Shown here piece by piece: positions 7,731-59,518 of a DNA stretch of 64,000 nucleotides. Each line of letters begins with the position of its first letter. Within the stretch, counting starts at the first letter, position 1. The notes under the pieces were generated by a model that did no database searches, had not been told where the DNA came from, and saw only the letters and a list, made by a program, of their open reading frames with translations. Position numbers and translations under genes: made by a program. The DNA comes from Okamejei kenojei (taxonomy: Eukaryota): positions 14,880,001-14,944,000 of the forward strand of contig CM069156.1 in NCBI GenBank assembly GCA_035221665.1, written 5' to 3'.

Positions 7731-8209
7731 CCGCCCCCAACAAGCCTCACAGGACCTGTAACCTGATAGAATTTGTACGAATTTGTTTGACCTTTGGGCG
7801 GGAGTGCCCAACAATGAATGATTTGGGCGGTTTATTGTTGGTTTCCCCAACTGGGTTTGATCTCTTCCTCATTATTGCAAACATTGCCCGCTTCAGTTAT
7901 CTGCACAGATCTTCGTGATGACCTGATGGTTTAACGGTTCGTTTACACACAAAAGCTGGCACGAAAATGCTATAGCACATCGGAGTTGTCAGTTTATTCA
8001 AACATACACCTCGTGAAAAGATTCAAGCGCTTAGGAGCTGCCGATTCACAGCCATTTACTTGTTTGGAAATCTAAAAAAAGTGCACACACTGGAAATCTA
8101 AAATAAAAACAGAAAATTGCGGAAAAGCTCCTCGGGCCTGTCAACATTTTGTGGAGAAACTGTATTTTAAGCCATCACCCCCTCATCAGACTGAGAAGGA
8201 GAAAAACAA

Positions 8210-8557
8210 CACAAAATGCTGGAGTAACTCGGTGAGGTTAGACACTATAAGGTCATAAGGAGTAGAATTAGACCATTCGGCCCATCGTCTACTCCGCCAT
8301 TCAATCATGGCTGATCTGTCTCTCCCTCCTAACCCCATTCTCCTCCTTCTCCCCATAACCTCTGACATCTGTACTAATCATGAATCTATCTATCTCTGCC
8401 TTAAAACTATCCAGCATGTATGGAGAGCATGAATAGGTAACGTTTCGGGTCAGGACCTTTCTTCAGACTGTTTTCCGGAGATGCCGCCTGACTTGCTGAG
8501 TTACTCCAGCACTGTGTCCTTTTGTGTAAACCAGCATCTGCAGTTCTTTTTTTCTAC
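8210..8557. mobile_element. PLE-derived foldback element interrupted by a CR1 3' tail (~8240-8412)
   Basis: Inverted arms, antisense hammerhead-like core ~8439-8466, TSD aaggaga(a/g)aaacaa at 8196-8209 and 8558-8571. Confidence 0.75.
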
Positions 8558-8865
8558 AAGGAGAGAAACAAGTCAGTTGAGTGAACAGAGAAAGTGGGGG
8601 AAGGCAATGGGTGGGGAAAAAGGGGGATTTCTCTGAAAAGGTGAAATAGTAGTCATCAAAGGGTAGTTTACTCCCTTGTATGATGTGTTGCTCAAGTGAG
8701 AAAATCTGTGTCATGTTGCAGGCTAGAAATGAACGAGAATGGAAACTGGATGACATGAAAAAATGGCCAGTCCTGATACAGTCAGAAAGAGTGGGTTTTT
8801 TTTAAAGTTAGAGAATTTAACATTAAGTATTACAGGCTGCAAGTTGCCCAGGCAAAATATGAAGA

Positions 8866-9170
8866 CTTTAGTTTTTAGTTTAGAGATACAGCGTGGAAAC
8901 AGGCCCTTCAGCCCATCACGTCCGTGCAGACCAACGATCTCCACACATTTGCACTATCCTACACACACTAGGGACAATTTACAATTATACCAAGCCAATT
9001 AGCCTGCAAACCTGTACGCCTTTGAAGTGTGGGAGGAAACCAGAGCACTCGGAGAAAACCCACGCAGGCCACGTGGAGAACGTACAGCTCTGTACAGACC
9101 AGCACCCGTAATCAGGATCGAACCCGGGTCTCAGGAGCCGTAAGGCAGCAACTCTATCGCTGCACCACTG
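8866..9170 (-). mobile_element. HE1-like V-SINE
   Basis: Full-length reverse copy with (tttag)n tail. Confidence 0.85.
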
Positions 9171-9620
9171 TTCCTCAAGCTTGTGTTGGGCCTCTTTATA
9201 ACAGTGCCAACGGATAGAGATAGATGTGCCGGAGTGAGAGTAGGGTGGTGCATTAAAGTGGCAAGCAACTGGAAGCTCAAAAACTGCCTTTTTGCCTCTG
9301 AAGAAGGATCCTGACCCAAAGCGCCACATATCCATGCTCTCCAGAGATGCTGCACGACCTGCTGAGTTACTCCAGCACTTTGTGTCTTTCACCTCTTCCT
9401 GACCCAGAGACTCAATAGGTAAGGCAGCAAGTCACTTGCACTTCTTCCAATGGAGTTTATGGCATATGACGTTCACAGTGTGGTGCCTCTACCTTAGAGA
9501 AATCAAATGCAGATTGAGGGATCGTTTTGTGGATCACCTGCATTCAGCCTACGGGGAGACCCTGAGCCGCTCTCATTCACCATCCTGCCTCCACTCTGAC
9601 CTCTCTGTCTGAAGCCTCCT
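9170..9620 (+). mobile_element. Degraded PLE pieces (GIY-YIG-like and end repeat)
   Basis: End repeat with ctgaagaaggatcctgacccaaagc at ~9298-9390; 9420-9620 resembles the GIY-YIG coding segment of 50091-50600. Confidence 0.55.
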
Positions 9621-9824
9621 GATCTGTTGTGGATTGTTACCCATCTCCACTCAATATCCCTTTGCTGAATCACACCATCCTCAGTTTTTCCCAACGATTG
9701 TCTAATGATAACTAATTAATAAGTTTGGGGATTTTCAAATGAAAAATTATCTTTGTCATTTTTCACACGTGATGACTCTTGGGCCTTCAAAGTGGAATAA
9801 ATACCACTGTGTTGAACTGTAATA

Positions 9825-9998
9825 GCAAAAGGCATGAAGTGCTGGAGTAACTCAGCGGATCAGGCAGCATCTCTGGAGAACACAATATCCAAAACATCAC
9901 CTATCCGTGTTCTCCAGGGATTCTGCCTGACCCGCTGAGTTACTCCAGCACTTTGTGTCTTTTTTGTAAATTAGCACCCGCAGTTCCTTGTTTCTACA
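9825..9998. mobile_element. PLE-derived foldback element
   Basis: Inverted arms gctggagtaactcagcgg / ccgctgagttactccagc; flanking repeat tgttgaactgtaata / tgttaaaatgtaata. Confidence 0.75.
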
Positions 9999-57689: not shown

Positions 57690-57804
57690 GAGAAATCAAA
57701 ATCAAAGAGCAATCTTGAATCAAAAGGGACAAAGGGAGATAAAGGCTTCCCATTGCAGCCTGTATCTGACAACAGTTCCTCTCCTATTCTTCTGGAGCTA
57801 AATG
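57690..57804 (+). CDS. BCL7B: BCL7B exon 3
   Basis: Acceptor ttcatttag; EKSKSKSNLESKGTKGDKGFPLQPVSDNSSSPILLELN; donor g|gtgagt; 115 bp keeps the frame. Confidence 0.88.
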
Positions 57805-58068
57805 GTGAGTGCATTTCAAACTTTTTTTTATGGTGCTCTAAGGATTATATGGAGGTAATTTGCTCTACTTGAGGAATGCTAATATTTGAGAAATTGGATT
57901 TGTTGTCAGTTGAAGTAAAAAGATTTTTTTTAAATAATAATTTGTGCAAAATCATTTTTGAACAGCTTTGTATTGACTTGTGTAGTGTGATGCTAGAGCT
58001 AGTATAGATATTGGGTATCTTCCCCTGAAAGAAACTATTACACCAGTTAAGAATGTTCATGCTAGTTT

Positions 58069-58108
58069 CCCCCCCCCCCCCCCCCCCCCCCCCCCCCCCC
58101 CCCCCCCC
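58069..58108. repeat. 40-nt poly(C) tract in BCL7B intron 3
   Basis: Seen directly; further C-runs at ~51532-51555 and ~51621-51652. Confidence 0.9.
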
Positions 58109-58300
58109 AATCATATAGTAGCTCAAAAATGTATATTGTTAGATGTCCTTTCTTGTCATATGAGATTTGAGCTTTTAATCAGTTTGGGTGCTAATGCCAA
58201 TTGGTGAAGAATTGTGAAACCGTGTAACCTGTGAAATTATTTCACGTGCTTGCTACATTGGGGCATTGCCATGTTGTTCTTCCTACATATATAGTAGCTG

Positions 58301-58462
58301 CAAAATGCTGGAGTAACTCAACAGGATAGGCAGCATCTCTGAGGAGAAGGAATAGGTGACGTTTTCGGTTGAGACCCTTCTTCAGCCTGTCCCGCTGAGA
58401 TACTCCAGCATTATGTGTCTACCCTCAATTTAAATCCAACATCTGCAGTTCTTTCATACACA
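58301..58462. mobile_element. PLE-derived foldback element
   Basis: Inverted arms; TSD tatatagt(a/g)gct(g/a) at 58288-58300 and 58463-58475. Confidence 0.75.
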
Positions 58463-59518
58463 TATATAGTGGCTACAGTGTTACAGGCCTTGTTAAATAT
58501 GGCAGAATGCAATACACAGGATGCTCTGGTCTCAGATACTTGAACTTCTTGAGAGTCCACTCTCTTGGAAAGCAAGGCCATGCCATTGCAGTGAAAGATC
58601 CAAGCATGAATAACTCTTGCATTGGTAGCATTTATGCCGCCAATCTGTTTATGGATCAACGTGATAGAGAAGCTTGGATTTACTAGACGATTTGAATAAA
58701 TAACCAGAAATGTAGGATGAGTGTCTCTGAACCGGCTGGTGCAATGACCTTTGTTATTAATTTCTAATTAAATTCTCTGTTTTTGCAACATTTTGGGACT
58801 CAGTAAATCAGCGGAATGACACTGACCTTGGATTGAACCAAAAGGTTTTTTTGTGCCTAACTAGATAGTATGTGACGTCAAGGCAAACTGCTGTATTTGG
58901 TCATGTAGAAGAAACTTTCTTGAGTGCTACAACAGACCAGATTCATCTGCACCATCCTCATTTCCATGACCACCCCCTCCCAATTAGGAAAAAATTAACT
59001 TTGAGTGTCAAATAATGTTGTCAACGTCACATTAACTACTGGGCTGCTTACACAGACGATCCATGTTTACGAATGTATCTCTAAATTTTAGTGGGGGAGA
59101 TGAGGCTTCTCCCTTGGTACCATTCGATAAGAACAGAATTCAACAGAGCAAGGCAGGTGCTATTCAACAGAGCAGGGCAGGGTTTTCCCAGTGTCCTGGG
59201 ATTTCTGTTTTCGGGCTATTGAAGGATATAGCTTGATTGAGAGAAAATAGAATTTGTGTCCCCTCTTAAACCCTACAAAGTTAAATTGTTGGTATTTGTT
59301 GTCTAAATCTGTGCTGAATGGTCATTGAAATCAGTAGAGCAGCTTGGGCCCATATCCAAGCAGATGTTAGTGCTCCATGGAGTAGGGTGAGAAACTAGAG
59401 AATGATATTGAAGTATTTGTTGTTGAAGCTAATCGGGAAACATTGTACTGTTGGATTGTTTTACTGCCTATGATCATTTCCATTTGATTTTAAATGTCTT
59501 TCCTTCCTAATTTTTCAG

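Follow-up and report, generated by a model that had tools for sequence, protein, structure and literature searches.

A 64,000-nucleotide stretch of the Okamejei kenojei genome (GenBank assembly GCA_035221665.1, contig CM069156.1, positions 14,880,001 to 14,944,000 of the forward strand), referred to below as the window, contains a series of short palindromes that resemble miniature inverted-repeat transposable elements (MITEs). The question raised by this locus is whether such palindromes are DNA transposons or the remains of a retroelement and, in the latter case, how one insertion could yield two inverted copies of the same end. An initial annotation had ascribed nine of them to Penelope-like elements (PLEs), arguing from a hammerhead ribozyme motif alone. 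The Penelope-derived origin is upheld here by a coding sequence absent from that annotation, and we consider it likely, with a probability of about 0.8, that the palindromes are 5′-truncated insertions of endonuclease-bearing (EN+) PLEs, made by priming on two strands from two internal reverse transcriptase (RT) start sites. All counts given below refer to this one window.

Architecture of the paired insertions

Profiles of the end repeat were made from 11 window copies of one subfamily, B, and four of another, A, and the window was searched with both. About 30 pieces of the repeat were found, which occupy about 6% of the window. What had been described as one shared end repeat is indeed a common repeat, but it comprises the two subfamilies A and B, about 80% identical across the end repeat, plus an older one, C. 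All nine named insertions were recovered, and a tenth, older one (25015-25210) was added. In all ten, two copies of one end repeat lie head to head with their 3′ ends outward, one arm bearing the tail and the other lacking it, within a target-site duplication (TSD). They are listed here with the length and score of each TSD; LINE stands for long interspersed nuclear element.

8196..8571, E1 (B): TSD 8196-8209 / 8558-8571 (14 bp, score 11); tail-less arm (-) 8210-8232 and 8412-8470, split by a LINE-like fragment at 8233-8411; tail copy (+) 8471-8558
9810..10013, E2 (B): TSD 9810-9824 / 9999-10013 (15 bp, score 9); arm (-) 9825-9883; tail copy (+) 9887-9998
17863..18728, E3 (B): TSD 17863-17877 / 18714-18728 (15 bp, score 12); tail copy (-) 17878-18011; arm (+) to 18713; a younger A copy at the centre
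18026..18615 (-), the A copy nested in E3: end of the endonuclease frame, 3′ region, intact hammerhead core (18121-18148), full tail, no inverted arm
22376..22534, E4 (B): TSD 22376-22389 / 22521-22534 (14 bp, score 14); 11-bp arm 22390-22400; tail copy (+) 22401-22521, beginning inside hammerhead stem II
25003..25222, E10 (old B, absent from the initial annotation): TSD 25003-25014 / 25211-25222 (12 bp, score 12, low-complexity T9A3); tail copy (-) 25015-25132; arm (+) 25135-25210
44282..44622, E5 (B): TSD 44282-44297 / 44607-44622 (16 bp, score 13); tail copy (-) 44295-44460; arm (+) 44462-44606
46542..47359, E6 (B): TSD 46542-46561 / 47340-47359 (20 bp, score 17); arm (-) 46562-46645; long tail copy (+) about 47050-47344
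Inside E6: LINE-like fragment, about 46646-46995; small A fragment with an 8-bp repeat, 47003-47049
48462..48682, E7 (B): weak 13-bp duplication; arm (-) 48475-48538; tail copy (+) 48537-48669, starting at -29 relative to the hammerhead cleavage site
49725..50901, E8 (A, youngest): TSD 49725-49738 / 50888-50901 (14 bp, score 14); tail-less arm (-) 49739-50615; tail copy (+) 50610-50888; the whole sits within an older PLE endonuclease remnant
58285..58474, E9 (B): TSD 58285-58299 / 58460-58474 (15 bp, score 12); arm (-) 58300-58389; tail copy (+) 58385-58462

The TSD search was anchored on the insertion edges, which are ambiguous by 1-4 nt, and was scored against a background of 4953 random window pairs, 0.3% of which reached a score of at least 9. 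By this measure the duplications are convincing in nine of the ten pairs and measure 12-20 bp, as against the mostly 11-16 bp given earlier. The duplication is weak at 48475, where the score of 5 is matched by 40% of random pairs and a 13-bp repeat with three mismatches abuts both ends by eye. Arm-to-tail identity spans 73% to 100% among the pairs, so that the insertions are real and of different ages rather than the result of assembly doubling. Three of them house later insertions (8233-8411, 18026-18615 and 46646-47049).

Measured in each insertion against its own tail copy (the edges of 48475 being placed by hand), the tail-less arm starts 39, 33, 37, 36, 35, 32, 30, 39, 35 and 43 nt from the tail end, with a mean of 35.9 nt and a standard deviation of 3.6 nt. 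This range of 30-43 nt agrees with the 30-45 nt given previously, and offsets as tight were obtained in none of 200,000 uniform draws over 1-100, a lenient null. The nearly fixed priming site postulated for the second strand is thus retained as a cluster of positions but not as a single site. Two A copies, the E8 arm and a solo copy at 628, terminate at the identical base, 35 nt short. At their inner side, by contrast, all ten junctions differ from one another. The shortest arm, at 22390, was correctly given as 11 bp (11/11 identical); the arm of about 240 bp reported at 49739 corresponds to the paired portion (235/239 identical), beyond which the tail-less copy continues, to 877 bp in total, into an endonuclease frame.

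These features bear directly on the possibility that the palindromes form a DNA-transposon MITE family, derived from or containing a PLE end. Their small size and long inverted repeats are what such a family would display. However, the ends are not reciprocal, being offset by 30-43 nt, the TSDs are long and variable, the ten inner junctions are all different and one arm runs into a GIY-YIG frame. A genuine MITE-like element in the same window (20664-20982) has reciprocal 43-bp inverted ends, 93% identical, with an apparent TAA duplication, unlike the foldbacks; we take it to be PIF/Harbinger-like. The MITE reading is refuted within the window, and we give it next to no credence; the MITE-looking palindromes are retro-insertions, as had been proposed. 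The foldback is common yet not obligatory, since the nested A copy at 18026-18615 has its own duplication of 15-19 bp (18011-18029 / 18614-18632, score 16) and a full tail without an inverted arm.

Endonuclease frame and hammerhead core

The identity of the elements is indicated by two features of subfamily A, listed here with the copies of the older subfamily C.

50071..50615 (-): GIY-YIG endonuclease frame, inner part of the E8 tail-less arm
50760..50787 (+): intact minimal type I hammerhead core (CUGAAGA, extra A, 5-bp stem II, GAAA, palindromic CG, UC)
8085-8198 (-), 30-152 (-), 20020-20112 (-), 32611-32661 and 52128-52171: subfamily C end-repeat copies, two of them with a CUGAUGA core

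Against the Pfam GIY-YIG model the frame gave an E value of 4.3e-4 and 21 bits, just under the curated cut-off of 22.6. Among 324 candidate longer proteins, 22 matched it, with E values down to 3e-53; the best relatives were shark and ray proteins (whale shark and rays on top) at 63-74% identity, and an RT domain (RVT_1) preceded GIY-YIG in four of the five homologs scanned. Because the E8 arm continues into a GIY-YIG frame with such RT-plus-GIY-YIG relatives, the repeats are, as judged from sequence, of Penelope-like origin. Residues C92, C95, H130 and H136 are invariant in 9/9 aligned sequences, which corresponds to the CCHH type with the cysteines inside the core, and a linker C49-X4-C54-X2-C57 (CX4CxxC) precedes the core. 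A CX2-5CxxC linker is reported as a feature of Neptune and Nematis and not of Penelope/Poseidon (PMC8557442); its presence in the predicted protein thus points to the former pair rather than the latter. The frame, which is C-terminal, stops before the 3′ repeat; endonuclease and end repeat are contiguous in subfamily A, and the second A copy (18026-18615) holds part of the same frame, while B and C have only decayed coding remnants. Nematis is presumably to be set aside for these elements, by host range alone. Remnants of endonuclease at about 9093-9299 (-) and 9400-9627 (+) may belong to subfamily C. In a zebra-shark homolog (P0005), the read-through C-terminal peptide looks, by eye, consistent with a hammerhead core that follows the endonuclease, the arrangement seen in the window.

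A hammerhead descriptor built from the features given in PMC4209133 found two intact cores in the window (50760-50787 and 18121-18148) and none in 200 shuffles. As described there, metazoan PLE hammerheads have an extra base after position 9, a G10.1-C11.1 pair and a palindromic 15.2-16.2, and lack helix III, all of which are shared by the window cores; the latter, as predicted from sequence, differ in having a stem II of 5 bp closed by a 2-nt loop (alternatively, 4 bp and a tetraloop) and a helix I of only 2-3 bp. PLE minimal hammerheads are also reported as pairs 100-700 bp apart on opposite strands (PMC4209133). The hammerhead attributed to the end repeat is therefore present as a minimal core, but it is intact in two copies only: the remaining cores are decayed or truncated, and the insertions at 9825, 22390 and 25015 are cut inside it. 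Most copies are accordingly predicted to be without a working ribozyme. An Rfam scan of the window gave no hammerhead match and returned only sub-threshold microRNA and hairpin models, the microRNA matches falling on three of the foldback insertions. When six pieces of the end repeat were folded as single strands, five did not surpass their shuffles (z from -1.5 to 0), and the consensus fold of eight tail-bearing copies (-4.8 kcal/mol, with an unfavourable covariation term) revealed no conserved tail structure. In E7, where the inner end of the arm lies exactly at the cleavage site (+1), the junction recreates a long helix I around a damaged core, and this hairpin folds better than shuffles (z -3.9), trivially so.

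Probable priming of the two strands, and the inner ends of the copies

According to the explanation that we favour, the RT/GIY-YIG protein would nick both target strands 12-20 bp apart, and both 3′ ends would serve as primers. Reverse transcription would begin internally on the RNA, 3′ of the hammerhead, its two start sites being separated by about 36 nt; initiation at the distal site would keep the tail on one strand, and initiation at the proximal site would leave it missing on the other. Both complementary DNAs (cDNAs) would then extend toward the 5′ end of the RNA, halt at variable points and become linked in head-to-head orientation through microhomology of 0-4 nt; the TSD would arise on repair. 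Two short cDNAs would give a product resembling a lopsided MITE, and the hammerhead would be carried passively on a mostly uncut template. The geometry, the TSDs, the offsets, the endonuclease frame and the hammerhead motif are found in the window. Nicking and extension of two strands, two internal starts and an uncleaved template come from in vitro work on the Poseidon element of Anolis: a PLE protein is reported to cut and extend both strands, to start reverse transcription internally at two sites bounding a 30-40 bp tail and to use unprocessed RNA (PMC11167929). By analogy, the same mechanism would apply to the A/B family, and we infer that joining proceeds as described. If each arm chose its start site independently, ten mixed pairs out of ten would have a probability of at most 0.001, from which we infer coupling of the two starts within a single event.

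Several points weigh against this explanation. The start site did not differ between strands in vitro, and the steps of PLE transposition past first-strand initiation are still unvalidated (PMC11167929); for head-to-head junctions, PMC3846280 prefers self-priming on an antisense template. The sample comprises only ten pairs from one window, one of which (48475) has a weak TSD, and no TSD accompanies several of the solo copies. The offsets spread over 13 nt and are affected by deletions in old tails. Finally, neither an RT of the A/B family nor a full-length A/B element was found in the window, where tblastn with five relatives returned endonuclease parts only; nor was there a tandem or full-length copy with direct pseudo-long terminal repeats (pLTRs) among the profile hits, 64 kb being small for that.

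In the chief competing explanation, a single priming event is followed by fold-back, the cDNA or an antisense template priming itself at a palindrome or microhomology and being copied back to near the tail boundary. Fold-back has been proposed for PLE head-to-head junctions (PMC3846280), the tail being ascribed to endonuclease-mediated resolution (PMC8557442). It would explain directly why only one arm has a tail, and would suit the near-symmetric arms of E3 and E5 as well as a private variant that is common to both E8 arms and not found in other A copies. On the other hand, the in vitro start sites coincide with both tail boundaries (PMC11167929), and fold-back of the tail copy cannot easily supply a tail-less arm that reaches further 5′ than its partner, as in E1, E9 and E8 (877 against about 280 bp). 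We regard fold-back as unlikely.

In twin priming, as described for L1, the second target strand would pair with the RNA close to the tail boundary through fortuitous complementarity, and this would fix the start of the arm. The 13-nt spread of the offsets would fit such a process, and in three insertions 5-6 of 8 positions match between target end and RNA. Over all ten pairs, however, 27 of 80 positions match where 21.7 are expected (p=0.11), or 31 of 100 where 27.1 are expected (p=0.21), a comparison of low power given the small number of pairs and old insertions; the youngest insertion, E8, matches at 1/8. Moreover, the initiation site in vitro was not homologous to the cut DNA (PMC11167929). 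The programmed twin priming suggested earlier, if understood in the L1 sense, is thus disfavoured and appears very improbable, and priming of both strands from two internal starts remains the preferred explanation.

Where the cDNAs stop was followed through 29 inner ends, whose positions relative to the cleavage site were assigned by hand, four being rough lower bounds. Since 22 of the 29 lie upstream of that site, the template was copied through it and is mostly uncut by the hammerhead; a pile-up at the cleavage site as the main route was rejected, with only 2/29 inner ends there. Nine of the 29, from both A and B, fall within -33 to -28 of the site (p below 1e-5 on an interval of -100..+60, 5e-4 on -40..+30). 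This cluster is suggestive only, because strict counting, with junction-fixed ends and E3 taken once, gives 5/17 (p=0.025) or 5/14 (p=0.14) under the tighter null. Directly before the core, a polypyrimidine tract ending in CAG is present in six of the eight copies retaining the site, and TCAGTCT in the -28 region fits, we presume, the initiator consensus. For D. virilis, an intron is reported to end at the 5′ side of helix I (PMC4209133) and the Penelope promoter to be internal (PMC2377424). Splicing to a shared upstream exon was considered and rejected, no common exon being visible in the nine flanks before the -28 site; for this reason, the ends are more likely to reflect the start of a transcript or an arrest at the acceptor than splicing to a fixed exon.

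Taken together, these observations allow a tentative reading, which we would sooner doubt than adopt: the strands would always be primed asymmetrically, one per tail boundary and in a coupled manner, and cDNA synthesis would preferentially halt 28-33 nt 5′ of the hammerhead cleavage site, at the polypyrimidine-CAG/TCAGTCT motif that immediately precedes the CUGA core in both A and B. If true, the stop would mark either where a short transcript begins (initiator) or where synthesis is blocked at a splice acceptor abutting helix I, and the palindromes would correspond, among PLEs, to strong-stop cDNA that is inserted pairwise. A stop site near -30 was not met in the passages of the PLE literature examined.

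Other copies, neighbouring sequence and known systems

Besides the pairs, the window contains the following copies.

628..724 (+): solo tail-less A copy within a repeat resembling a short interspersed nuclear element (SINE); same end base as the E8 arm; start -31 to -28
9297..9390 (+): solo tail-less old B copy flanked by older endonuclease remnants; start -28
14900..15018 (-): solo tail-bearing old B copy; start -29; TSD not found
39946..40392: two copies, one (-, 39946-40014) with a deletion inside its tail, the other (+, ending at 40392) old and lacking the tail
47360..47585 (-): B copy without a partner, immediately next to the right TSD of E6; tail absent or deleted; TSD not found
51673..51811 (+): 3′ end of an older B copy, host of E8; stops 29 nt before the tail end

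A TSD search around solo copies and candidate pairs (n=12) gave nothing in nine cases, a short repeat in two (scores 8 and 9) and a SINE-internal repeat in one. The two copies at 39946 and 40392 were rejected as a pair, no TSD uniting them. In the copies at 39946-40014 (-) and 47360 (-), the tail was apparently lost between two short direct repeats (CCAGCAT), one before and one inside the tail, and the tail may have arisen as a degenerate copy of the motif preceding it. In five of about 22 cases (18026-18615, 49739-50888, 8210-8558, 47003-47049 and 9297-9390), a younger copy is nested in older PLE DNA (p=0.06, on a rough 10% coverage estimate).

The window is vertebrate DNA rich in non-coding sequence, and its protein relatives indicate a cartilaginous fish. 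The first coding exon of a BCL7-family gene lies at 49322-49417 (+) (Pfam BCL_N, E 7.6e-15), with E8 about 320 bp downstream of it, in the first intron and beside a GC-rich promoter region. A single long frame with a DnaJ domain (45052-46278, -) and a Mod_r/VPS37-type exon (21753-22256, +) are also present; together with BCL7, they are reminiscent of what we take to be the grouping of DNAJC30, VPS37D and BCL7B in the human Williams-Beuren region. Fragments from the 3′ part of LINE-like elements, ending in a short microsatellite and in some cases paired in inverted orientation, occur at 1813-4678, 8233-8411, 46646-46995, 47880-48425 and 4967-5443, the last of these being an RT fragment; we assume them to be of CR1/L2 type. 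SINE-like repeats of the tRNA type and elasmobranch kind, presumably HE1-like, are found at about 500-870 and 8877-9173, and the solo A copy at 628 sits in one of them, the overlap amounting to just 3 nt. An assembly gap of 218 N (5831-6048) lies outside all insertions studied.

For annotation, these results mean that abundant hairpins of cartilaginous fish can pass for MITEs or microRNA precursors, yet are Penelope-like retro-insertions. At a density of about ten datable pairs in 64 kb, the whole genome would supply a very large sample for studying strand coupling, TSD length and cDNA stops.

The foldback architecture itself is neither lineage-specific nor new, since an inverted truncated copy, a 30-40 bp tail at one end only and a TSD have been published as the general structure of endonuclease-bearing PLEs (PMC8557442, PMC3846280, PMC2377424, PMC8969392). 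The idea of a programme particular to this lineage is given up on the same grounds (PMC8557442, PMC3846280, PMC2377424). A literature search, with subscription journals, Repbase and Dfam outside its reach, found no description of these elements in elasmobranchs. The Neptune clade, as described in PMC8557442, shares with them a C-terminal GIY-YIG domain, the CX2-5CxxC linker, two core cysteines, 5′ truncation, an inverted truncated copy, a 30-40 bp tail and a hammerhead in the end repeat. Unlike that clade, the window shows no microsatellite target bias in 11 duplications, and most of its copies are non-coding and 150-350 bp long; the clade is suggested by the linker motif. Pen2a/Pen2 of Adineta vaga and Penelope of Drosophila virilis (PMC3846280, PMC2377424) likewise have an inverted pLTR, a one-sided tail of 31-34 bp, a TSD around the whole unit and variable inverted repeats. 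Their TSD is 8-10 bp in A. vaga (PMC3846280) as against 12-20 bp here, and the published examples hold an open reading frame (ORF) and two direct pLTRs, features that the window contains in no complete form. Non-LTR retrozymes (bioRxiv 10.64898/2026.07.22.740005), reported from one chondrichthyan, are also short non-coding derivatives of PLE pLTRs with type I hammerheads; however, they form head-to-tail tandem arrays with a hammerhead per unit, whereas the window copies are head-to-head or solo, the pairs having individual TSDs.

The Poseidon element PAc of Anolis carolinensis (PMC11167929) resembles the window family in having a hammerhead upstream of a tail bounded by two RT starts, extension of both strands and an uncleaved template. 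It differs in belonging to the Penelope/Poseidon clade, without the linker present in the window frame, and in preferring AT-rich targets, whereas the window targets have no clear consensus by eye. In addition, the ORF of PAc starts within the hammerhead, while in the window the frame from an ATG at +22 stays open across the tail only in subfamily A. A genome-wide sample of the family described here would allow a mechanism so far demonstrated only with a Poseidon element to be checked in one of Neptune type.

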